64,000 nucleotides of DNA from Malacoraja senta (taxonomy: Eukaryota), in assembly GCA_038087875.1 (NCBI GenBank), contig CM075994.1, positions 4,156,001 through 4,220,000 of the forward strand, written 5' to 3'. The position numbers were made by a program, and so were the translations under genes. The notes beneath the pieces were generated by a model. It was not told the origin of the DNA, ran no database searches, and saw only the letters and a program-made list of their open reading frames with translations. Positions 28,175 through 51,339 of the stretch are shown here, piece by piece (positions within the stretch are counted from its first letter, which is position 1; every line of letters begins with the position of its first letter).

Positions 28175-31100
28175 AATATAATCAATAGTTTGGATTGGCA
28201 TTTGCAGTCAGTGAAACTTGTAAGCTATCAATTTCCATTAGATGTTCTATAAATATTGCTATCCTATCTATTAATTTCAGTATAATTGAAGGAGCAATTA
28301 TGAATAAAGCAAGGAATTATGAAGTTATTTCATTAATTCGATTTAAATTAATTAATTACGGAACTGCTGAATTCATTGCTTTTTCAAATAATAACTGCAT
28401 AATAATTTTGAGCAGGGGATTATTTTATAGAGGAGCCTTCACGTAAAAGCATTATGAAAGCTGTTGTGCTCGATTGAATTTGAATAAAGAGATTCCTTCT
28501 ATATTTATGGAGGTCACAGAAAAACTAAGCAAAGAATTGCGTTCTCGAATCCGCGCAATTGGAATGCAGAGAAAATATATATTTTTGAAACCATTGCTCA
28601 GAGACCTAAACCAGAAGGTAATCTAAATACACGATGACGGGGGGGGGGGGGGGTCATTAAATTCCACTGGACAAACGAGAAGACATTTGAATGTTACATT
28701 CCTCAGAGTAAAATTGTTAGTGATCCAGGTTAATGGGAGGCAGCGAGTACATATTGACATTGCCATTGACGTCCATTGCTTCCGAAGAAACGCATTAAAA
28801 ATAAAACACATTTCCCCGGGGCGTTACTATACCAACACATTCAATTTCGGTCCATACCTTTCTACTGCCTATAATTCAGATAATTGAAATATTTCCAGGT
28901 GCATTCCCAATTCCCAATGAGTCCTTGTCACCCTCACTTATTCATCTGCGTTGACTCGGTGAAGCGGTGAAGACATGATGGGTAAGATGATTCAGTGTGA
29001 TGCTTGGAGGGTGTGGGATGTGGGAGGTCAGGAACACTGATGGTGCCTCTGGCTGCTACACCTGTGGTAACTGTGTCTAGGTTCAGCTCCTGAAAGACCG
29101 TGTTGGGGCACTGGGGAAGCAACTTGATGACCGCAGGATCATCCGGGAAAACGTGAGCTTCCTGGACACGACCTGCAGTGAGGTTGTCTCGCCAAGGAAA
29201 CAGGAAGAGCGAAGGTGGGTGAGTGGGAGAAAGGGGAGTAACCGTGTAGTGCAGGAGACCCCAATGTCTGTGCCAAATTATAACAGGTACACCCTTATGG
29301 GAGCTGTCGGGGCAGACGACGCTTCCAGTCCGAGCGAAGGACAGGTCGGTGGCTCCAATCCTAGCGCTGAGACTCGACTGCTGAGACCAACGTCGGGCAG
29401 AGCTATAGTGGTGGGTGACTCCATTGTCCGAGGTGGGGACGGGAGATTCTGTGGCGGCACGCGAGACTCGAGGATGGTCTGTTGCCTCCCTGATGGCGGG
29501 GTTCAGGATGTCAGTAACCGACTTCAGAACATCCTCCAGAGGGAAGGTGAACAGCCGGCAGTTTAGAGAGTTAGAAAGAAAACTGAAAAGCAGGACTTTT
29601 TGGGTGGTTATCTGTGCATTGCTTCCAGTACCTCGCGCTGGTGAGTGCAGAAACAGGGAGATAGGGGATCTGAATGTGTGGCTGGCGGGTTGGTGCAGGG
29701 AGCAAGGATTTAGCTTTACAGACCACTATACAGGTCTCTTCTGGGGTAGGGGTTACTTGTACAAAGGTTACACCTTAACTCGAGTGGGACCAACGTTCTG
29801 GCAGGCAGGTTTGCTCTTGCTACACGTGTGGGTTTAAACTAATAGTTGGAGGGGTTGACAAATTGGGAGTATAAAGATGGAGTTAAAGGGGAAGGGAGTG
29901 CAGGAAAAGTTACAAAAGACTCCCGAATTAATGGGAAGGAATGTTCGAGGAGGGATAAGAGAGTAAGATCAGGACCAATAGTGACCGGTGTGAGAGGGGA
30001 GGTGAATGCCGGAGTGAAAAGTGTTGTTTATAAATGCGCGAAGTATAAGAAATAAAGTGGACAAGCTCGAGGCTCAGTTAGAAATTGGCAAGTGTGATGT
30101 TGTGGGAATTACAGAGACATGGCTGCAAGAGGGGCAGGGCTGGGAACTGAATATTCAAGAGTATACGTCCTATCGAAAAGACAGACAGATAGGCAGAGGG
30201 GTGGGGTAGCTCTGTTGGTGAGGATTTAAATTCAGTCTCTTGCAAGAGATAACAATGAAACAGGAGATATGGAGTCATTATGGATAGAACTAAGAAATTC
30301 TAAGGGTAAAAATACCCTATTGGGACATCTACAGGCCCCATAAAAGTATCCTGGATATAGGGTGCAAGTTGAATCAAGAGTCAAAATTGGAATGTTGTAA
30401 AGGTTGATATGGGAGATTTCAACATGCAGGTAAACTGGGAAAACCGGGTTGGTACTGGACCCTAAGAAAGGGAGTTTGTGTAGTGCCTCCGTGGTGCATT
30501 CTTAGAGCAGCTTGTACTGGAACCTACCAGGGAGAAGGCAATTCTGGATTTGTGTTGTGTAATGAACCGGATTTGATAAGGGAACTCAAGGTAAAGGTGG
30601 CCACAATATGATAAGTTTAAATGTACAATTTGAGAGGGAGACGGGTAAATCGGAGGTGTCAGTATTACAGTTGAACAAAGGGGACTATGGAGCCATGAGA
30701 GCGGAACTGGTCAAGTTGCCTGGAAAGATACCCTAGCAGGGATGCCAATGGAGCAACAGTGGCGGGTATTTCTGGGAACAATACAGAAGGTGCAGGATCA
30801 GTTCATTCCAAAGAGGAAGAAAGATTCCAATGGGAGTAAGGGCGACCGTGCCTGAGAAGGGAAGTCTGGGACAGTGTTAAAAATAAAGGAAACGAAGTAT
30901 AACAGAGCAAAGATGAGCGGGAAGCCAGAGGATTGGGCAACTTTTAAAGAGCAACATAAGATAACTAAAAAGGCAGGAGAAAATATGAGGTATGAAGATA
31001 AGCTAGCCAGGAATATAAAGGAGGGTAGTAAAATCTTCTTAAGGTATGTGAATAGGAAAAATTTAGTTAAGACCAAAGTTGGACCCTTGAAGACTGAAAA

Positions 31101-31373
31101 AAGGTGAATTTATTATGGGGAACATGGAAATTGCAGACGAGTTGAATAGGTACTTTGGATCCGTCTTCACTAAGGAGGACACAAACAATCTCCCTGATGT
31201 ACTAGTGGCCAGAAGATCTAGGGTGACGGAGGAACTGAAGGAAATTCACATTAGAAAGGAAATGGTGTTGGGTAGACTGATAAGACTGAAAGCAGATAAA
31301 TCCCCAGGGCCTGATAGTCTGTATCCCAGGGTACTTAAGGAAGTGGCTCTGGAAATTGTAGACGCATTGGTGA

Positions 31374-31822
31374 CGGCAGTGGTGGCTTCTTCTTCTCCCT
31401 GGTCCCCCACGAGGGATCGCGGGCTTCGGACCCCGCGCCAGCTGGAGCTCTGCAGACCGCGGCTTCAGGCTGCCGGCTGCCACGGGCCAGCGAAACGGAG
31501 CGCTCCCCTCCGCGCTGCGCCCGCCGCTGAAGCCCCGGGTGCGTCTCCGGGAAAGGCCGCGCCGATCCTCGCTGTTAGGCCACGGGGGAGGTGACATGAA
31601 AAAAAAGTCGCCTCTCCATGGAGGAGGCGACCAAACGGTTTCCCCCTCACCCCCCCCCCCCCCCACCCCCCACCCCTACACACACACACACACCAACCCC
31701 CCACACAAGACACACAAAGAAACATTAAAAACATACATATAAACATATTAAAAATGAAAAAAAGGTTGAAAAAAACGGACACGCTGCTCACAGGGCGCCG
31801 GCTTGCAGCGCCCCCACCGACC
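31374..31822 (-). mobile_element. GC-rich non-autonomous element inserted in CR1
   Basis: Interrupts CR1 after DALV; shares blocks (ccgggaaaggccgc, aaagtcgc) with 32068-32792; poly-C and (CA)n tracts. Confidence 0.6.
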
Positions 31823-32067
31823 GACTAGTTAGCCTGACCTCTTTTTTGGGGAAGATACTGGTGGCGATTATAAAAGATGAAATAGCGGCACATTTGGATA
31901 GCAGTAGCAGGATCGGCCCGTGTCAGCATGGATTTACGAAGGGGAAATCATGCTTGACTAATCTTCTGGAATTTTTTGTGGATATAACGTAGAAAATGGA
32001 CAAGGGAGAGCCAGTGGATGTAGTGTAACTGGACTTTCAAAAAGCATTTGATACGGTCACACAGAGG

Positions 32068-32792
32068 TTTAAAGGTTCAAAGGTTCACATTTGTCACATG
32101 CACCATAAGGTGCAGTGAAATGAATTTACCATGCAGCGTTACAATTAAAAAAGGACATAATACACATCATAATTCAACACAGACATCCACCACAACATTT
32201 ATCAATGTGGTGGAAGGCAATACAGTTCAGACAGTCCTCCTCCCTTGTTCACCCGTGGCTGGGGCCTTGACCCTCAGTAGACGCCGCTATGGATGGCCCG
32301 ATGTTCAAGCCCTCTGATCGGGATGGTCGGAACGCCGACGTCGGAACAGGTCGAGCACACCACGCGGCCAGGAGCTCCCAAATCGACCACCACTTTACCG
32401 GAGACCGCGGCTTCAAGATGTTGTTGGCCGCAGGCCGGCAGTCGGACCCCTTCTCCGGCGACCCCCGGCGAGGGATCGCCCGTTCCACGATGTTAAATTC
32501 CCCGCTGCGCCGCCGCTGAAGCTCTGGGCCCGGCTCCGGGAAAGGCCGCACCAAACCAGCTGTAAGGCCGCGGGGAGGGAGGCGAAGAAGCGACAACGAA
32601 GAAAGTCGCATCTCCGTCGAGGTAGGGGATTGAAAAACGGTTTCCCCTTATTCCCCTCCCGCCACACAAGACATACAGAGAAACACTGAAACATACTTTT
32701 GGATATACAAAAAACAAAAAAAAATGTCAAAACAACGAACCCGCTGCAGGCGAGGCAGCCGACTCGCAGCGCCATCGGAACCGGATCCGGAT
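32068..32792 (-). mobile_element. GC-rich SINE-like element with LINE-type 3' tail, inserted in CR1
   Basis: (aaaggtt) repeated tail at 32068-32086, GC-rich body homologous to 31374-31822, CR1 resumes ~32793. Confidence 0.6.
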
Positions 32793-36292: not shown

Positions 36293-39200
36293 CAATCAAG
36301 TGTATTTTCTAAATTCATTTATTAATACCACTAATATTAAAGATGTCTGGAGAATAGAAAATCCAACTGGACGGGAATATTCATTTTACTCTCCAGTACA
36401 CAAAACATACTCAAGAATAGATTATTTTTTAGTTGACTCCCACGTTTATCCCATTTACTTATAACTCAAAATACCATAATATTATAATCTCAGACCACGC
36501 ACCTGTAACATTTATGATTAAATTAAATGGATTGTCAGAGAAACAAACATATTGGCGATTTAACCCACAAATCTTGAACGAAAGATCATGCCAGGAATAT
36601 ATTATTAAACAGATACAAATATTTTTTGAGGTAAATGATAACCCTGACACACCTACTTCTCTTATGTGGGAAACGTTTAAAGCGTTTGTTCGAGGTGCAT
36701 TAATCTCTGCTCAAGTATTTTATAATAAAGAGAACAGGATTAAACAACAAACATTGGAAAGGGAAATCAAGACAACTAGATTTAGACAATGCGAGAATGT
36801 CATCTATTTCAAAACATAATAAAATTGCAGTATTGAAATATCAATTAAATAAAATGTATTCAGAACAAGTAATAAAACTTTATCAAAAAACCAAACAATT
36901 ACATTTTGAATTTGGAGACAAACCACAAAAACTATTAGCACGTCAGTTACGAAAAATGGAAGGGGAAAAAATAATTCATAAAATTAGAACAGAGACAGGA
37001 GAATTATTAAAAATGCCCAAGGACATAAATGAAAGATTTCTCCAATACTATCATAACCTTTATTCAACTAAAGCTGTAACACAAACGGAAGGAATAGCAG
37101 ATTTTTTACTAAAATGTAATTTAAAAGGTTTAGATTCAAATGATAGAGAATTATTAGAAAGGGAGATTACGATAAAGGATATTGAGGAGTCTATTGGCTC
37201 TTTAAAAAATGGTAAAGCAGTAGGACCAGATGGTTTAGGCTCTGAATGTTATTAAAAAAATTATGACTTGCTATGCCCACGTTTACAAAGACTGTATGAG
37301 CATATGTATACTCAACAGAAACTCCCAGATACTTTAAATGAATCTATAATAACACTTATTCCTAAAGCTGATAAAGATCCGGAAGATCCGGGATCTTATA
37401 AAGCAATTGCACTTTTAAATACAGATCAGAAAATATTAACTAAAATACTAGCGCATAGCTTAAGTACAGTGATGAATAAAATAATACACCCTGACCAAAC
37501 AGGCTTTATTCAGAAACGGTACTCATATTATAATCTAAGAAGATATTTAATATTATTTATTCTAAGAGAATGATTAATGAAGATTTAGCAATAATCTCAC
37601 TCGATGCTGAAAAAGCATTTGATCAGGTTGAATGGTCTTATTTATTCTCAGTGATGGAAAATATGCAACTAGGGGAGAAATTCTGTACATGGATAAAACT
37701 GTTATATACAAATCCTACGGCTAGAATATTAACAAATCAAAGGTTGTCACCAAAATTCAACCTATCTAGAGGTTGTAGACAAGGATTCCCGTTATCTCCA
37801 TTATTATTTGCTTTAGCTATTGAACCACTTGCAGAAAGAGTTAGGGGTCATCCGGAAATATATGGGTATATCACAAAGGACACAGTGAATAAAATTTCTC
37901 TATACGCAGATGATGTACTAATTTACATTACAAAACCAGAAATTAGTATTCCAAACTTATTAGAGCTAATAACCCAATTTGGGTCACTCTCAGGATACAA
38001 AATAAATTGGAATAAGAGTGAAATTATGCCAATAAGGGAACATAACAAACACATAATACAACAATTTCCATTTAAAATAGTAAACGAAAAATTTAAATAC
38101 CTAGGTATCTATGTAACTAAGATATATACATCATCATTTAAAGCAAACTTTCCCCCACTACTGAATAAACTACATAAGAATATTCAATACTGGAAAACAC
38201 TCCCTATTTCAATGATTGGCAAAATTAATTTGTCTATTGTTAATGATTTTATCTGGGATTATAAGAACCATAGGATAAACAAAAGACATTTGTGTAAATC
38301 AAAAATAAATGGAGGTTTGGTTTTACCCAACTTTCTGTTTTATTTTTGGGCAGTTAATATTAAAAATATGAATTTCTGGTTGGAAGAAATAGAACAACAA
38401 CCAGATTGGTTAAAAATGGAAAAGGAAGACTGTTTGCCTTTTGATATCGGGTCGATATTATTTGCTACATCTAAATTAAACAAAAAAAATTATAGGGAAA
38501 ACCCTATAATATTTAGTACCATACGAATTTGGAAACAATTAAAAAAGACATTAAAATTAGATAATTTATCACTATTTCTCCCGATTGTGAATAACCCTTT
38601 GTTTAAACCCTCATGGTTGGACAGGGGTTTTACACAATGGAAGAATTATGGAATTAAAAATATGGGACAACTTTATAAGGAAGGCACTTTTCTGACATTT
38701 CAGGAGTTGCAACAGACTTACGGACTTCGAGGAAATGATTATTTCAGATATCTTCAACTCAGAGATTATGTAAAATCGAATACTCAAAACTTTCGAATTA
38801 GAAATTCAGAAATTCTTGACGAATGTTGGAATAAACATCCTAATACAGAAAAATTAATATCTTATATATATAATATCTTATTAGACAGTGACATTCCATC
38901 GACGGACTTACACAGACAAACATGGGAAAAAGAATTAAATGAAATAATAACGAAAGATACTTGGGAAGAAAGTTTACAACAGATACATCAATGTTCATTA
39001 AATGCCAGACATTCTTTAATACAATTTAAAGTAATACATAGATTACATTATTCAAAAACAAAATTACATAAAATCTTTCAACATATCTCACCTATATGTG
39101 ATAAATGCCAACATTTAGAAGCTACCTTATCTCATATGTTTGCAAACTGTACAAAAATTAAAAAATTCTGGGTAAATATTTTTAGTATAATATCTAAAGT

Positions 39201-39897
39201 GACCAGCACACAAGTGGACCTGGATTCAAAAATTATAATACTCGGAACATCAGAATTAAATCAAACATTTACAACAACACAAAGAAACTTTATTGATTAT
39301 AGTATAATAACAGGAAAAAAATTAATTCTAAAATTTTGGAAAGGCCCTACGGCCCCCACAATCAAAATGTGGATTATAGAAATGACGGAGACCTTAAACG
39401 TGGAAAGAATCAGATTTTCCCTGTTGGATAAACAGGAAGTATTCGTTGGAACATGGTCTCCCTTTATTGATTATTTAAATGGTCAGAATGGTTCAGCACG
39501 GGAACCTGACTAATGCTCGGGCTAAAAAATGGATGAAATGCTATATTCTGAAATGTACGAATATATCTCGAATGAAGTTTTTTATTTTAATAATTTTTTC
39601 CACTCTTCTTTAACTATCTTTCTCTTTTGTTTTGTTTTTTTGTTTTGTGTTTCTTGTTTTTTGTTAAAAAAATTAAATATTTTTTTTTTCTCTCTTTTTC
39701 TTCTCTTTCTTTTCTTTCTTTACTTCATCTATCTTTTTAGTTCTATCTAGTTTAAAATAAAAAAAAATAAAAAGGTAAAAGGTATTGGAGACAATGTAAT
39801 AATAATTGATAATATTATCAATTTAAAAATGTAAGACTGTAATGATGTTAATAGGTTATGTACTTATCTCCAATAAAAAATATTTAAAAAAAAAAAA
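36293..39897 (+). mobile_element. 5'-truncated L1-clade LINE (ORF2: end of APE, RT, C-terminal Cys/His motif), 3' UTR, AATAAA, poly(A)
   Basis: SRIDYF, SDHAP, GPDG, SLDAEKAFD, RGCRQGFPLSP, YADD, YLG, CDKC-x8-H-x4-C; AATAAA at 39872, poly(A) 39886-39897; several frameshifts. Confidence 0.95.
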
Positions 39898-42228: not shown

Positions 42229-44960
42229 GTATCATTGTCAACTACTCTATACAACCTTACGAGATCTATTTTCTCTTGCATATTCGATTAAAATTGATAT
42301 ACATTATCTGAAAGCTATGTCACAGTTTTTAAAACGTGTTTGTATTTGCTTTACAACCAAAGCATTTAATGTGATTCCCAAAGTTCCATGTTCAGCTCAT
42401 GCCTCACGCCTTGCACTTTGCTTTATTGGGATTTAAATCTGGTTTCCGTTTCAACAAGATTTAGTTCAATATTCACATTTAACCCTACGGTCATAGATGT
42501 TCTGCGTACGTCGTATGTATTCAAACGTAATATTGATTAGAGATCAAGAAACATTCAACTGTCCCATGCATGCTTTTCGTTGGAATACCTGTTTGCCAGC
42601 CACTCACACTATGCCTGCAATAACCTAAATAGTGTATCGTGCTGACCATCAAATACTACGCCTCCCTGGTGACCAGAGTAACGGAGATTGTTAGTCAAAC
42701 TCTGAAACCGGGAACCCCAGCTGATGATACGTCTAAGAAACAGGAATCGTCCTGGATTTCCCATTGTGGAAAGCATTCCGACAGGCTGAATTTCCAGGCC
42801 GTGCATCTCCTTCATGCATTAATATATTAATCATACATCTGACATTGGAAATTGCACCTGTTGACCCTGCAAATTCTTCCTGCTGAATTTTCTGCTAGTT
42901 CAAAAATCTAAGAATTTTACTCTGTTCTATGAAACTGGTCCACCGTGTTCTGTTACATCAATACATATTCTAAGCGACTGAATTGACCACAGCTGACAGC
43001 AAGAATTTAATTATCAATAATAACCAGCACCTAATGAACAGTTGGAATGCCAGGAGCAAATTGGTTACTCTTACCTGAACATATGTTCAAGTATGTTAAT
43101 GTCAACGTTAAAGTTCCATTAATTATAAACTGCAAACTGAGTAAAAATTCGAGAAAGAGGTAAGTAATGAATCTCTTAAGTTTATTTCACTCGCTAAAAT
43201 CCCGGTCACCTACCCTCCAAAACAGGAATCCATGCCGCTAACTGCCAGCACAATAATCCTGTATTAATACAAGCTAAATTTGAAAGATTCGCGTCATCCC
43301 GGCTGCCAGCGGGTAATTGGTAAAGGGCATGGTGATAATTTCAAACTTAAGAAATCATTCAATGCGAACAGCAAAGCAAATAAAAAGAATTGACACCAAT
43401 CAATCCGTAAAGTTTGAAATTCCTCAACATCCCATAATCATATCAAGAGTCAAGAGTGCTTTATTGTCAAATGTCCCAGATAGAACAATGACATTCTTAC
43501 TTGCTGCAAAACAACAGAATATGTAAACATAGTACATAAACGAGCGGGGAAAAAAGCGTTCAGTGTGTATATATACACATACCTACATACTCAAAAAACA
43601 AACAATTATAGTGCAATAGTAATAATAATAGTCTGTGGCAGTTCAAAGCTTATTGTTTGTCGTGTTTAATAGCCTAATGGCTGCAGGGAGATGCTTTTCC
43701 TGAACCTGGACGTTACAGTTTTCAGGCTCCTATGCCTTCTACCCGATGACAGTGGTGAAATGAGCGTGTGGCCAGGAGGGTGTGGGTCTCTGAAGATGTT
43801 AGCTGCTTTTTTCAGGCAGCGACTCCGATAAATCCCTTCGATGGTGGGGAGGTCAGAGCCGATGATGGACTGGGCAGTGGTCACAACTCTCTGCATTCCA
43901 TTCCGCTCCTGGACGTCCAAGTTGCCGAACCAGGCCATGATGCAACCAGGCAATATGCTCTTTAATGTACACCTGCAGAAGTTCAAGAGAATCCTCTTTG
44001 ACACATTGAATATCCGTAATCTTCCCAGGAAGTAGAGGCGCTGATGTACTTTCTTTGGAATTACATCAGTGTGCTGGGTCCAGGAAAGATCTTCGGAAAT
44101 ATGCACACCCAAGAATTTGATGTTTTTGACTCTCTCCACCATCTTCCCATTGATATAAACAGGGTTGTAGGTTCCCATCCTTCCCCTTGCAAAGTGCACA
44201 ATCGGTTCCTTGGTTTTGCTGATATTGAGAGACAGGTTGTTGTGCTGGCACCATTTGGTCAATCGGTCGATCTCACTTCTATACTCTGACTCATCACCAT
44301 CTGTAATTCGCCCAACAACGATGGTGTCGTCGGCGAACTTGATGATGGAGTTCGCACTATGTCCGGCTACACAGTCATGAGCTTAGAGTGAGTAGAGCAG
44401 GGGGCTGAGCACGCAGCCTTGAGGTGCTCCCGTACTGATTGTTACTGAGGATGAAGTATTTCTGCCAACACGAACAGACTGTGGTGTGTGGATGAGGAAG
44501 TCGAGGATCCAATTGCAGAGGGATGCGCAGAGACCCAGTTCCGTGAGCTTGGTAATCAGCTTGGAGGGGATGATGGTATTGAACGCCGAGCTGTAGTTTA
44601 TAAAAACAGCCTGGCGTAAGTGTTTTTATTGTCCAAGTGGTCCAGTGCGGAGTGGAGAGCCAGTGAGATCGCATCCTCCGTTGACCTGTTGTGACGGTAC
44701 GGGAACTGTGCAGTGGGTCAAGGTTCTTGTCGAAGTAGGAGTTGATATGCCCTATAACTAAGCTCTCAAAGTACTTCCTCATCACGGACTTTAGTACCAC
44801 TGGTTGACAGTCGTTAAGGCACATAACCTTTCTCTTCTTGGGCACCGGTAATATTGATATACATAGATACATAGATACATAGAAAATAGGTGCAGGAGTA
44901 GGCCATTCGGCCCTTCGAGCCTGCACCGCCATTCAATACGATCATGGCTGATCATCCAAC

Positions 44961-47900
44961 TCAGTATCCCGTACCTGCCTTCTCTCCATACCCCCTGATC
45001 CCTTTAGCCACAAGGGCCACATCTAATTCCTTCTTAAATATAGCCAATGAACTGGCCTCAACTACCCTCTGTGGCAGAGAGTTCCAGAGATTCACCACTC
45101 TCTGTGTGAAAAAGTTTTTTCTCATCTCGGTCCTAAAGGATTTCCCCCTTATCCTTAAGCTGTGACCCCTTGTCCTGGACTTCCCCAACATCGGGAACAA
45201 TCTTCCTGCATCTAGCCTGTCCAACCCCATAAGAATCTTGTACGTTTCTATAAGATCCCCTCTCAATCTCCTAAATTCTAGCGAGTATAAGCCAAGTCTA
45301 TCCAGTCTTTCTTCATATGAAAGTCCTGACATCCCAGGAATCAGTCTGGTGAACCTTCTCTGCACTCCCTCTATGGCTATAATGTCCTTCCTCAGATTTG
45401 GAGACCAAAACTGTACGCAATACTCCAGGTGTGGTCTCACCAAGACCCTGTACAACTGCAGTAGAACCTCGCTGCTCCTATACTCAAATCCTCTTGCTAT
45501 GAAGGCCAACATACCATTCTCTTTCTTCACTGCCTGCTGCACCTGCATGCCTACTTTCAATGACTGGTGTACCATGACACCCAGGTCTCGCTGCATCTCC
45601 CCATTTCCTAATCGGCCACCATTTAGATAATAGTCTGCCTTCCCGTTTTTGCTACCAAAGTAGATAACCTCACATTTATCCACATTATACTGCATCTGCC
45701 AAACATTTGCCCACTCACCCAGCCTATCCAAGTCACCTTGCAGTCTCCTAGCATCCTCCTCACAGCTAACACTGCCCCCCCAGCTTAGTGTCATCCGCAA
45801 ACTTGGAGATGTTGCTTTCAATTCCCTCGTCCAGATCATTAATATAAATTGTAAATAGCTGGGGTCCCAGCACTGAGCCTTGCGGTACCCCACTAGTCAC
45901 TGCCTGCCATTGTGAAAAGAACCCGTTTACTCCTACTCTTTGCTTCCTGTTTGCCAGCCAGTTCTCTATCCACATCAATACTGAACCCCCAATACCGTGT
46001 GATTTAAGTTTGTATCCTAATCTCTTATGTGGTACCTTGTCGAAAGCCTTCTGAAAGTCCAGATACAACACATCCACTGGTTCTCCCCTATCCACTCTAC
46101 TAGTTACATCCTCGAAAAATTCTATAAGATTCGTCAGACACGATTTACCTTTCGTAAATCCATGCTGACTTTGTCCAATGATTTCACCACTTTCCAAATG
46201 TGCTGCTATCCCATCTTTAATAACTGACTCTAGCAGTTTCCCCACTACCGATGTTAGACTAACTGGTCTGTAATTCCCCGTTTTCTCTCTCCCTCCCTTC
46301 TTAAAAAGTGGGGTTACGTTTGCTACCCTCCAATCCTCAGGAACTACTCCAGAATCTAAAGAGTTTTGAAAAATTATCACTAATGCATCCACTATTTCTG
46401 GAGCTACTTCCTTAAGTACTCTGGGATGCAGCCTATCTGGCCCTGGTGATTTATCGGCCTTTAATCCATTCAATTTACCCAACACCACTTCCCGACTAAC
46501 CTGGATTTCACTCAGTTCCTCCATCTCCTTTGACCCGCGGCCCCCTGCTATTTCCGGCAGATTATTTATGTCTTCCTTAGTGAAGGCGGAACCAAAGTAG
46601 TTATTCAATTGGTCTGCCATATCCTTGTTCCCCATGATCAATTCACCTGTTTCTGACTGCAAGGGACCTACATTTGATTTAACTAATCTCTTTCTCTTCA
46701 CATATCTATAAAAACTTTTGCAGTCAGTTTTTATGTTCCCTGCCAGTTTCCTTTCATAATCTATTTTCCCTTTCCTAATTAAGCCCTTTGTCCTCCTCTG
46801 CTGGTCTCTGAATTTCTCCCAGTCCTCTGGTATGCTGCTTTTTCTAGCTAATTTGTACGCATCATCTTTTGCTTTGATACTATCCCTGATTTCCCTTGTT
46901 ATCCACGGATGCACTACCTTCCTTGATTTATTCTTTTGCCAAACTGGGATGAACAATTTTTGTAGTTCATCCATGCAGTCTTTAAATGCCTTCCATTGCA
47001 TATCCACCGTCAACCCTTTTAGAACTAATTGCCAGTCAATCTTGGCCAATTCACATCTCATACCATCAAAGTTACCTTTCTTTAAGTTCAGAACTGTTGT
47101 TTCTGAATTAACAATGTCACTCTCCATCCTAATGAAGAACTCAACCATATTATGATCACTCTTGCCCAAGGGGGCACGCACAACAAGTCTGCTAACTAAC
47201 CCTTCCTCATTACTCAATACCCAGTCTAGAATAGCCTGCTCTCTCGTTGGTTCCTCTACATGTTGGTTTAGATAACTATCCCTCATACATTCCAAGAAAT
47301 CCTCTTCCTCAGCACCCCTGCCAATTTGATTCACCCAATCTATATGTAGATTGAAGTCACCCATTATAACTGTTTTGCCTTTGTTGCACGCATTTCTAAT
47401 TTCCTGTTTGATGCCATCCCCAACTTCACTACTACTGCTAGGTGGCCTGTACACAACTCCCACCAGCGTTTTCTGCCCCTTAGTGTTTCGCAGCTCTACC
47501 CATACCGATTCCACATCCTCCAAGCTAATGTCCTTCCTTTCCACTGCGTTAATCTCCTCTCTAACCAGCAACGCTACCCCACCTCCTTTTCCTTTCTCTC
47601 TATCCCTCCTGAATATTGAATATCCCTGGATGTTCAGCTCCCAGCCTTGGTCACCTTGGAGCCATGTCTCCGTGATCCCAACTATATCATAATCATTAAT
47701 TGCTATCTGCACGTTCAACTCATCCACCTTATTACGAATGCTCCTTGCATTGAGACACAAAGCCTTCAGGCTTGTTTTTACAACGCTCTTACCCCTTATA
47801 CAATTATGTTGAAAAGTGGCTCTTTTTGATTTTTGCCCTGAATTTGTCTGCCTGCCACTTTTACCTTTCACCTTGCTACCTATTGCTTCCGCCCGCATTT

Positions 47901-48087
47901 TACACCCCTCTGTTTCTCTGCTCACCCATTTAAGAACCCCACCACCTCTTATTCTCTGTTTATTATTGTTTTCTTCTTTCACCCCTACATGTTGGGTCTG
48001 AGTGCTTTCCTTCTCTGCCTCCTGCCTCACACACTGTCTAATAGCATTCTCTATTTGAGTCCCTCCCCCCAACCATTCTAGTTTAAA
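44961..48087 (-). CDS. CR1 ORF2 (APE endonuclease + reverse transcriptase), single +1 frameshift in the C7 run at 45775-45781
   Basis: 768-aa and 310-aa ORFs overlap at [47 protein letters not shown] all intact. Confidence 0.93.
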
Positions 48088-49013
48088 GTCTCCCCAGTAG
48101 CCTTTGCAGATCTCCCCGCCAGGATATCAGTCCCCCTCAGGTTCAAGTGCAACCCATCCTTTTTGTACAGGTCGAACCTTCCACAAAAGAAGTCCCAATG
48201 ATCCAGAAATTTGAATCCCTGCCTTCTGCACCAGTCCTTCAGCCACGCATTTATCCTCCACCTCGCTCCATTCCTACTCTCACTGTCGCGTGGTACAGGC
48301 AGTAATCCCGAGATTGTTACCTTTGCTGTCCTTCTCTTTAACTCCCCTCCTAACTCCCTAAATTCTCCTTTCAGGACCTCTTCTCTTTTTTTACCTATGT
48401 CATTGGTACCTATGTGTATCACGACCTCGGGCTCCTCTCCCTGCCCTTTCAGGATGTCTTGGACACGTTGGGACACATCACAGACCCTGGCACCCGGGAG
48501 GCAAACTACCATCCGGGTCTCCCGACTGCGTCCACAGAATCGCCTGTCTGACCCCCTAACTATAGAGTCCCCTATTAATATTGCCCTCCTCTTCTTTTCC
48601 TTACCCTTCTGAGCAACAGGACCGGTCTCTATACCGGAGGCCCGGCCGCTGTCGCTACCCCCAGGTAGGCTGTCCCCCCCAACAGTACTCAAACAGGAGT
48701 ACTTATTGTCAAGGTGTACAGCCACCGGGGTACTCTCTAGTCCCTGCCTGTGCCCCTTGCCTCTCCCAACCGTGATCCACTTGCCTGCCTCCTGTGGTGT
48801 TGGAGTGACCACATCCCTGTAACTCCTCTCAATTACTTCCTCGCTCTCCCTGACCAGACGGAGGTCATCGAGCTGCTGCTCCAGGTTCCTAATACGGTCC
48901 ATTAGGAGCCCCATCTCGATACACCTGGCGCAGATGTGGACGTCTGGAGGGCTATCTGACTCCATGACTTCCCACATCTGACATCCAGAACAGTAAACTG
49001 CCCTGGCCGTCAT
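48078..49013 (-). CDS. CR1 ORF1 (zinc finger, leucine zipper, SGNH/GDSL esterase-like domain)
   Basis: [11 protein letters not shown]...CARC, heptad [29 protein letters not shown]. Confidence 0.9.
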
Positions 49014-49033
49014 ACTCCCCTTACCCTGGATAG

Positions 49034-49179
49034 AATATAAAACAAACTGATAGAATACAAAACAAACTGCTACAATACAAAACAAACTGCTACAATAGAA
49101 AACAAACTGCTACAATACAAAACAAACTGCTACAATACAAAACAAACTGCTACAATACAAAACAAACTGCTACAATACA
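49034..49179. repeat. 20-bp tandem repeat (~7 copies) in the CR1 5' UTR
   Basis: Unit aacaaactgctacaatacaa. Confidence 0.9.
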
Positions 49180-49293
49180 GTACAATCAGCAGGGATCTGA
49201 CTCCCAATCAGCTGCTCTCTCTTATCTGCGTCCACCAATCAGCGGCTTCCTCAAACCCACTTGTTTTTGAAGTGGAACGTTGCCGATTTGGGT

Positions 49294-49911
49294 TCCTTTT
49301 TAAGTCCTACCGCTCGGTTGTAGCTCCTCCCTCAGCGACCTCTCCAACGGCTTTCGGATCTCTGTTAGGAACAAGCCCCCGCGCTCCTTTTTAAGTCCTA
49401 CCACTCGGTTGTAGCTCCTCCCTCAGCGACCTCTCCAACGGCTTTCGGATCTCTGTTAGGAACAAGCCCCCGCGCTCCTTTTTAAGTCCTACCGCTCGGT
49501 TGTAGCTCCTCCCTCAGCGACCTCTCCAACGGCTTTCGGATCTCTGTTAGGAACAAGCCCCCGCGCTCCTTTTTAAGTCCTACCGCTCGGTTGTAGCTCC
49601 TCCCTCAGCGACCTCTCCAACGGCTTTCGGATCTCTGTTAGGAACAAGCCCCCGCGCTCCTTTTTAAGTCCTACCGCTCGGTTGTAGCTCCTCCCTCAGC
49701 GACCTCTCCAACGGCTTTCGGATCTCTGTTAGGAACAAGCCCCCGCGCTCCTTTTTAAGTCCTACCGCTCGGTTGTAGCTCCTCCCTCAGCGACCTCTCC
49801 AACGGCTTTCGGATCTCTGTTAGGAACAAGCCCCCGCGCTCCTTTTTAAGTCCTACCGCTCGGTTGTAGCTCCTCCCTCAGCGACCTCTCCAACGGCTTT
49901 CGGATCTCTGT
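49294..49911. repeat. 91-bp tandem monomer array (~6.8 copies) at the CR1 5' end
   Basis: taagtcc recurs at 49301, 49392, 49483, 49574, 49665, 49756 and 49847; units almost identical. Confidence 0.97.
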
Positions 49912-51339
49912 ACCGCTCTTGATGCGCTCTTAAAGCAGGTGGCAAACTCAGACCTCAGTAGTGAGAGGTTGAAAATGTCCGCGAAAACTCCAGCCAGTTG
50001 GTCTACACAGGTTTTGAGAACTCGGCTGGGTATACCATCAGGCCCAGGCGCTTTCCGAGGGTTCACCCCCCTGAAGGATCTTCTGACGTCGGCCTCTGTG
50101 ACTGTTACTGTAATACTACGGGGGTTCGGGAAGGCACATCAATGTTCTCCCTATCAAAGCGTGCGTAGAACGCATTTAGCTCGTCAGGGAGTGATGCTTC
50201 GCTGTCGTTTGAGCTGCCTCCTAATTTCGCCATGTAGGAGGCGGTGGCATTCAAGCCCTGCCACAGTTGCCGAACATCCGTCCCATCCTCCAGCTTAGAG
50301 CAGAAGTCCCTTTTGGCCTTTTTGATGGCCTTGTCAATGTCGTATCTGCACTTCTTATAGACCTCTGCGTCACCGGACCTGAATGTCCCGGATCTGGTCA
50401 TCAGAAGAATGCGGATCTCCTGGTTCATCCAAGGCTTCTCGTTAGGAAACACTCGGAAGGTTTTTGTTGGAATAGTCCTCCACACATTTCCTTATGAAGT
50501 CTGTAACGACTGTGGCGTATTCATTCAGGTCCGTTGCCGAGTCCTTGAACTTTGCCCAGTCTACTGACTGCAAGAAGTCCTGTAGTTGTTCCTCTGTCTC
50601 CCCAGACCAGTTCTGTGCAGTCCTCACATCTGGGGGTGCGCTCTTCAGTTGTTACATGTATGCGGGAAGAAGCAGCACCGCGGAATGGTCGGATTTCCCG
50701 AAGTGAGGGCGAGGGAGAGAGCGGTAGGCATCCTTGATGGTCGTATTGCAGTGGTCAAGGGTGTTTAATCCTCTGCACGAGACATGTTGGTGGTAGTTTG
50801 GGAGTGATTCTGTAAAAACAGCACTCTGTATGTCAGTTCTCATGTGATTCTCCATCCGAAAAGGCGCCCACCCCTTTGCTTCTGTAGATGCTGCTCGATC
50901 CGCTGATTCTTCCTGTATTGAGTTTCCTTCTACTGCAGGTTTCCGTACTTGCTATCTATTGTGTCTGGAACTGGCCGCTATGCTACTTACGTCTTGGCCA
51001 ACCCATGACATCCAAGCACCTGTTAAGCGTGCTTCTACTTCTACGTTACTAAGCAGTGCAAGTGAAATATAAACAAACCATTTGCACCCGGGTGATTACG
51101 ATGGGGGCAAAAATGTGTCTGCGGCCTGGCGAATGGAGTCGACATTGCAGACTGAGAGTCATGCCATAAAACCATCCATGCAACCCCTCTTTCTTTGTCC
51201 CACCCCACCCAAGTCGTTGGCTTCAAAGCCGTCTGTTTGAGGCTCATTTGTTTTAACTCGTTTCACTTGGGCCACAGCGTTATCGTCCCTTTATCATCGT
51301 TAAATGTTTTACATATCTTTCACTTATGTGTTCTATATC

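Follow-up and report, generated by a model that had tools for sequence, protein, structure and literature searches.

Esterase-type CR1 LINEs probably express their second open reading frame by programmed -1 frameshifting, which would join ORF1, an endonuclease (EN) and a reverse transcriptase (RT) in a single fusion protein. Such a fusion had been proposed in a preliminary description of the window (64,000 nucleotides of Malacoraja senta DNA, contig CM075994.1), and the proposal is now supported by the conservation of a slippery heptamer down to synonymous positions in widely diverged CR1 lineages, its fixed phase, swaps among shift sites, an ORF2 AUG of unfixed position and four out-of-frame AUGs ahead of that AUG. 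The site, its X_XXY_YYZ phase, its conservation at the codon level (T/G_TTA_AAC) and the open -1 frame that follows it are all present in the DNA.

Structure of the element

The element in which the junction was found, copy A, is a full-length CR1-type LINE of 5,060 bp on the minus strand (44859–49918). It is bounded by a 5-bp target-site duplication (49923–49919 and 44858–44854); CR1 insertions are often said to have no clear target-site duplications. Copy A sits inside a different LINE, interrupting the latter's RT gene (50400–49919 and 44858–43666, minus strand), as the flanks of copy A encode both halves of one RT motif. We take the interrupted LINE to be of the Rex/L2 type. The 5' UTR of copy A has two tandem arrays on the minus strand, one of 6.8 near-perfect 91-bp units (49294–49911, 99% matches) and one of 7.3 units of 20 bp (49034–49179), and both recall monomer-type internal promoters.

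ORF1 (48078–49013, minus strand) encodes 311 amino acids and ends T-L-N-stop. It has a Cys motif, in which C28 and C31 are nearly invariant, a putative coiled coil and an SGNH/GDSL esterase domain (PF13472, E=3e-14), and the profile of its family matches the structure of the ZfL2-1 ORF1 esterase (4C1B) with E=1.5e-43. The 5' part of ORF2 (45766–48087, minus strand) is in the -1 frame relative to ORF1 and consists of a linker of about 110 codons, an APE endonuclease and an RT (PF03372, PF14529, PF00078). Counted from the heptamer, ORF2 stays open for 773 codons, and its 3' part (44961–45896, minus strand) is in a different frame. Copy A is inactive – its ORF2 is disrupted near 45775, where the frame changes at a run of G. 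The 3' tail is made up of 3.1 copies of an 8-bp unit (44859–44883, minus strand); a tail of short tandem repeats in place of poly(A) is a known trait of the CR1 clade. With an APE endonuclease followed by RT in ORF2, a Cys motif and SGNH esterase in ORF1, and a short-repeat tail, copy A is probably a CR1 element, a label that comes from this architecture and known traits of the clade rather than from an RT tree against L2. CR1 elements are abundant in this genome, and there are many more 5'-truncated copies within the window.

The ORF1/ORF2 junction

The sequence at the end of ORF1 reads ACT TTA AAC TAG. The heptamer T_TTA_AAC (48081–48087, minus strand) is in X_XXY_YYZ phase with ORF1, as the preliminary description had stated, and the stop codon TAG (48078–48080) follows it immediately. 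A -1 slip at this site enters the ORF2 frame, continuing LEWLGGGTQ, and the stop-to-stop ORF in that frame (48126–45766, minus strand), which begins upstream of the heptamer, carries both the EN and the RT domains. Copy A contains both an in-phase X_XXY_YYZ heptamer and, downstream of it, an ORF that is open in the -1 frame. Of the 128,000 positions in the window, 537 (0.42%) have a canonical heptamer and 64 (0.05%) one of the four shiftiest heptamers.

The first in-frame ATG of ORF2 is at 47896–47898 (minus strand), after four out-of-frame ATGs (48076, 48047, 47990 and 47929). The late position of this ATG had been noted earlier and holds, with none in frame before 47898, but the distance has to be corrected from about 58 codons to 61 codons past the CTA codon. 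Between the heptamer and the first Met, 63 codons of the -1 frame pass with neither a stop nor an AUG, while the other two frames have six and five stops. In 2000 shuffles a 63-codon stretch was open by chance in 1.3%. The AUG just past the ORF1 stop in copy A was considered as a start for ORF2 and rejected – its frame is +1, and it is variable among family members.

In contigs of two sequencing runs (12,152 and 368), which cover 47800–48400 very deeply, the variants listed include no common indel across the junction, so the -1 phase is the state of the family and not a lesion of copy A. Among the 40 variants listed of 62, not one affects the heptamer, the stop codon or the G-rich tract.

Conservation of the junction in DNA

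A second, distant CR1 family is represented in the window by copy B. Its decayed ORF1 (28994–29842, plus strand) is 40–51% identical to that of copy A at the amino acid level over two main segments, and its junction (from 29833–29842, plus strand) has T_TTA_AAC, TAA, a G-rich tract and then EN. The -1 frame of copy B meets a stop after 13 codons, consistent with its decay. Copy B runs on as a decayed EN-RT region (30018–32085, plus strand), making this the second near-full-length CR1 family in the window.

A metagenome scan with the ORF1 alignment found 24 loci, of which 14 were followed to the end of ORF1; 10 of these reach the junction and four stop at a contig edge, and the other 10 of the 24 end further upstream. 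Nine of the 10 metagenome junctions belong to a single bird-like group and have T_TTA_AAC, and the nine loci are presumably bird CR1. The tenth, the distant locus L002 (ORF2 44% identical), has G_TTA_AAC. Together with copies A and B there are 12 DNA junctions, 11 with T_TTA_AAC and one with G_TTA_AAC, and across these loci the site is conserved at the level of codons. The stop codon, TAG or TAA, directly follows the heptamer in 11 of the 12 and has been lost in the remaining one, the decayed locus L020.

This conservation goes beyond what the protein needs, as judged from codon counts, an invariant block and the residue that precedes the site. Although the residue encoded by the codon that supplies the first T of the heptamer varies (Thr, Gly, Ala, Cys or Ser), the third base of that codon is T in 11 of the 12 junctions, compared with a third-position T frequency of 15–40% elsewhere in these ORF1s. 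At other places in the same ORF1s, Leu is encoded by TTA in 18 of 152 cases and Asn by AAC in 11 of 37. By a hand estimate, the full motif given Leu-Asn has a chance of about 1% per independent lineage, with roughly four lineages represented. In an alignment of 10 rows, TTAAACTA is the sole long invariant block. From the heptamer, the -1 frame is free of stops into EN in seven of the 12 junctions and open to the end of the contig in two; the other three are decayed. The longest open -1 frame among the junctions has 1006 codons.

There were no relatives in viral contigs and plasmids, where the ORF1 classes ending in GN, KN and GF (see below) had no DNA match. In prokaryote genomes the matches were a single short contig, which breaks off ahead of the junction, and a bacterial GDSL enzyme whose stop has no heptamer.

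ORF1 termini in related proteins

The closest named homologs of ORF1 are from skates, rays and sharks. Among 90 homologs, 65 end 22–33 residues past the DGxH motif, 16 do not have the motif, one is shorter and eight are longer. LN is the terminal dipeptide in 52 of the 65, including Hyla and Xenopus proteins. This suggests that sharks, rays and frogs share the CR1 -1 site, and birds probably do as well. CR1-type ORF1 sequences also appear under bacterial names (P0022 and L025; Pseudomonas aeruginosa and a gammaproteobacterial MAG), probably through eukaryotic contamination, and several ray gene models with ordinary gene names have absorbed pieces of CR1 ORF1 or ORF2 (P0229, P0230, P0032, P0063, P0076).

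Among the best 150 distant representatives, 89 qualify, with LN ends in 40, GN in 14 and KN in four, and GF or FF stands at or beside the end in several others. At the protein level, the ends of distant ORF1s thus appear to switch among LN, GN, KN and GF, the dipeptides encoded by the four shiftiest -1 heptamers. The residue ahead of the dipeptide also appears to co-vary as a frameshift heptamer requires. Only one of 89 residues before LN has no T-ending codon. Before GN, the residue is Gln in 10 of 15 proteins and could have a G-ending codon in 15 of 15; such a codon is impossible in 28 of the 89 LN cases. The Fisher P values (1e-9 and 0.01) overstate independence because the rows are related.

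One clade of 35 rows (support 97) in a FastTree tree of the esterase domain, built without the junction site, includes 16 GN, 10 GF/FF-type, three KN and two LN ends and four others. The end labels come from a crude pattern and some rows outside this clade are mislabelled (for example P0083, P0162, P0172 and P0207), and counts of changes derived from the tree were therefore set aside. In the tree set of 174 ORF1s there are five SN ends and 23 with no compatible dipeptide. The SN-ending group is related to L002 (P0072, P0074, P0075, P0103, P0120) and may have an imperfect shift site or some other mechanism. A window test for compatible tripeptides was not discriminating, with 95 of 117 at the site and 83 and 69 of 117 in two control windows.

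Four database proteins run from the esterase straight into F-K-L-x-x-x-G-x-G, which is the -1 frame of the site. Decayed copies shifted into the -1 frame would be expected to look like this, and the four proteins thereby testify indirectly to the DNA of further families. Among longer fused proteins, a search found four matches and no intact ORF1-ORF2 fusion, a result that is weak either way. The ORF2 N-termini given by gene callers vary widely and were not used as evidence, since the choice of start is arbitrary.

The region downstream of the heptamer

A G-rich tract in copy A (48061–48074, minus strand) is a candidate stimulator. It begins 6 nt past the heptamer, at 48074, as previously described, and its conserved core is a run of six G (48070–48065) that starts 10 nt past the heptamer. 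A run of at least four G is found at an offset of 10 nt in eight of the 11 junctions that are long enough, while the offsets in the remaining three are 7, 9 and 11 nt; in most copies the run at 10 nt has five or six G. The G4Hunter score of the tract is in the top 0.1–2.6% of windows in all 10 elements scored.

A conserved stem-loop or pseudoknot 5–9 nt past the heptamer was not found. The RNAalifold consensus of nine rows has no pairs, and copy A has only weak single folds downstream, with z-scores of -0.4 to -1.2; the folding tools used predict no pseudoknots or quadruplexes directly. The site had been called coronavirus-type, a description that stands for the heptamer and fails for the 3' structure, there being no shared stem or pseudoknot-like stem. 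Two candidate pairings of the G tract were rejected. One, a stem with bases about 75 nt downstream, is in the fold of copy A and not shared by the others, and the best long-range partners of the tract lie at unrelated places among the elements. The G run could instead reflect a constraint on a Gly-x-Gly peptide, which would imply that the stretch itself is translated.

In described systems, structured -1 stimulators have spacers of 5–9 nt and linear or protein-bound ones 11–15 nt, and stop-dependent shift sites are also described; stimulation by quadruplexes was limited to synthetic constructs, with natural ones not yet known as of 2016 (from the part of PMC5009743 consulted).

A model for ORF2 expression and its alternatives

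Under the frameshift model, most ribosomes would terminate at the TAG, setting ORF1p free. A minority, caught while UUA occupies the P site and AAC the A site, would slip back by one base, bypass the stop and cross a variable linker of 37–110 residues into EN and RT. The product would be an ORF1-EN-RT fusion at low stoichiometry, like Gag-Pol. Slipping would be helped by the adjacent stop and by the G run at 10 nt, whether as a quadruplex, through pairing with rRNA or through a bound protein. A wider version of the model, which we put forward tentatively as possible rather than probable, is that this -1 frameshift is ancient, extending from cartilaginous fish to tetrapods and more distant hosts, and that the Gag-Pol-like fusion is driven, with no pseudoknot, by the stop next to the site together with the G run 10 nt downstream, the G run being a quadruplex or protein-bound (possibly sensing ORF1p) and a type of stimulator not yet described.

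It is unlikely that most ORF2 protein is instead translated on its own, from a downstream AUG or non-AUG codon reached by termination-reinitiation or stop-start coupling, with the motif aiding termination or reinitiation. There is an in-frame AUG ahead of EN in all seven junctions open into EN, four bird-like loci (L001, L003, L004 and L011) have TAG-NN-ATG, and the AUG at 47898 is untouched among the 40 variants listed of 62. Initiation also has precedents among LINEs: Zorro3 requires its first ORF2 ATG (part of PMC1965478), and an unusual form of initiation is favoured for L1 ORF2 (part of PMC5009743). However, the position of the AUG is not fixed. The first in-frame Met is at codon 4, 22, 28, 63 or 89 across the junctions; codon 4 is GTG, TGG, TCG or TCC rather than ATG in five other bird-like loci; and in copy A four out-of-frame AUGs precede the one in frame. 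Reinitiation leaves unexplained the X_XXY_YYZ pattern, the heptamer swaps and the fixed -1 phase, and it does not account for a frame that is open upstream of the AUG (shuffles of five loci, joint P about 6e-6). Initiation at an AUG may coexist with frameshifting, above all in the bird-like TAG-NN-ATG copies.

The motif might also work on the DNA or the pre-mRNA, as an internal promoter (TATA-like plus GC box) or a splice signal that gives a message for ORF2, a reading we consider very improbable. TTTAAA and the G-rich box do resemble promoter elements, and CTAG a 3' splice site, but neither function requires the phase of ORF1 or an open -1 frame. For splicing in particular, the AG is AA in copy B, the sequence upstream is purine-rich, and no well-supported joint is found at the site; the seven joints listed are from single low-depth contigs of a run that is probably DNA, which makes this last point weak. 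There is least to be said for the motif as a by-product of shared ancestry and a constraint on a C-terminal Leu-Asn, which we regard as extremely improbable. A terminal Asn in 63 of 87 short-tailed representatives, many of them close kin, fits such a constraint; synonymous positions fixed in the DNA junctions do not, nor does the replacement of Leu by Gly and Lys rather than by hydrophobic residues. In a group with tails of 10–14 residues KN is internal, and the match to the ZfL2-1 esterase stops four profile positions short of the terminal Asn.

Relation to known elements and recoding systems

The element resembles CR1s with ORF1 of type IVB (zinc finger/leucine zipper plus esterase; subgroup 7 of Metcalfe and Casane 2014, PMC4120745), which likewise have two ORFs, a Cys-motif esterase, APE-RT and a short-repeat tail. 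The difference from the type as described is that ORF2 is here proposed to be fused to ORF1; the passages and supplements consulted of that paper do not mention a frameshift or an overlap of ORFs. The ORF1 esterase is homologous to the SGNH esterase of zebrafish ZfL2-1 (PDB 4C1B), an element of a different LINE clade, L2.

The proposed cassette resembles those of retroviral Gag-Pol and nidovirus ORF1a/1b, where a structural or accessory ORF likewise closes on these heptamers and a polymerase ORF follows in the -1 frame. U_UUA_AAC is found in IBV and G_UU(A) in equine arteritis virus (part of PMC5009743). Unlike those systems, the CR1 junction has a stop next to the heptamer and a G run 10 nt downstream in place of a conserved stem at 5–9 nt, and it belongs to a non-LTR element in which no protease domain was detected. 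Linear 3' elements are likewise found in arterivirus nsp2 (nsp1beta-PCBP), cardiovirus, Semliki Forest virus and Ty3, at a longer spacing of 11–15 nt, and pea enation mosaic virus likewise has a nearby stop that matters. The CR1 element differs from these linear or protein-bound stimulators in being G-rich and at 10 nt.

Mammalian L1, Candida Zorro3 and silkworm SART1 share with the CR1 model a bicistronic LINE RNA and low-level ORF2, but their ORFs do not overlap and their mechanisms are of the initiation type; the ORF2 of SART1 is translated by stop-start coupling. For some non-LTR elements of insects and protists whose ORFs overlap, frameshifting has been suggested, without a test. In the part of PMC5009743 searched, a frameshift is described within the HeT-A gag gene, TART and L1 are discussed with none at the ORF junction, and CR1 is absent.

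No report of CR1 frameshifting and no account of CR1 ORF2 translation were found in the full-text literature searched, which included parts of PMC11818727, PMC4255032, PMC3905857, PMC6609765, PMC5408684, PMC3159450, PMC8665684 and PMC5633606 and of the supplements of PMC4316615. An overlap of the ORFs or a proposed frameshift may already be on record in Kapitonov and Jurka 2003, Haas 1997, Kajikawa 1997 or Repbase Reports. In the literature searched, the element and the recoding mechanism are each known and their combination, as predicted here from sequence, was not found in print.

If the model is right, the RT of CR1, an element that makes up 11.8% of the chicken genome (part of PMC11835228), would be a fusion tethered to an esterase, in contrast to L1. 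RNP assembly, cis preference and membrane targeting could then follow from the fusion itself, and annotations of ORF2 that begin at an internal Met would be truncated. It would also be a widespread case of -1 recoding in nuclear genomes, in which the G tract is a candidate for a natural stimulator. The cassette, at about 40 nt, lends itself to direct testing.

Other retroelements in the window

The window contains a second type of recoding signal. Another LINE (17673–16975, minus strand) has a 2A-like motif, ending N-P-G-P, just before its endonuclease domain. There is also an AT-rich RT ORF of 659 codons (37534–39513, plus strand), presumably of the L1/Tx1 type.
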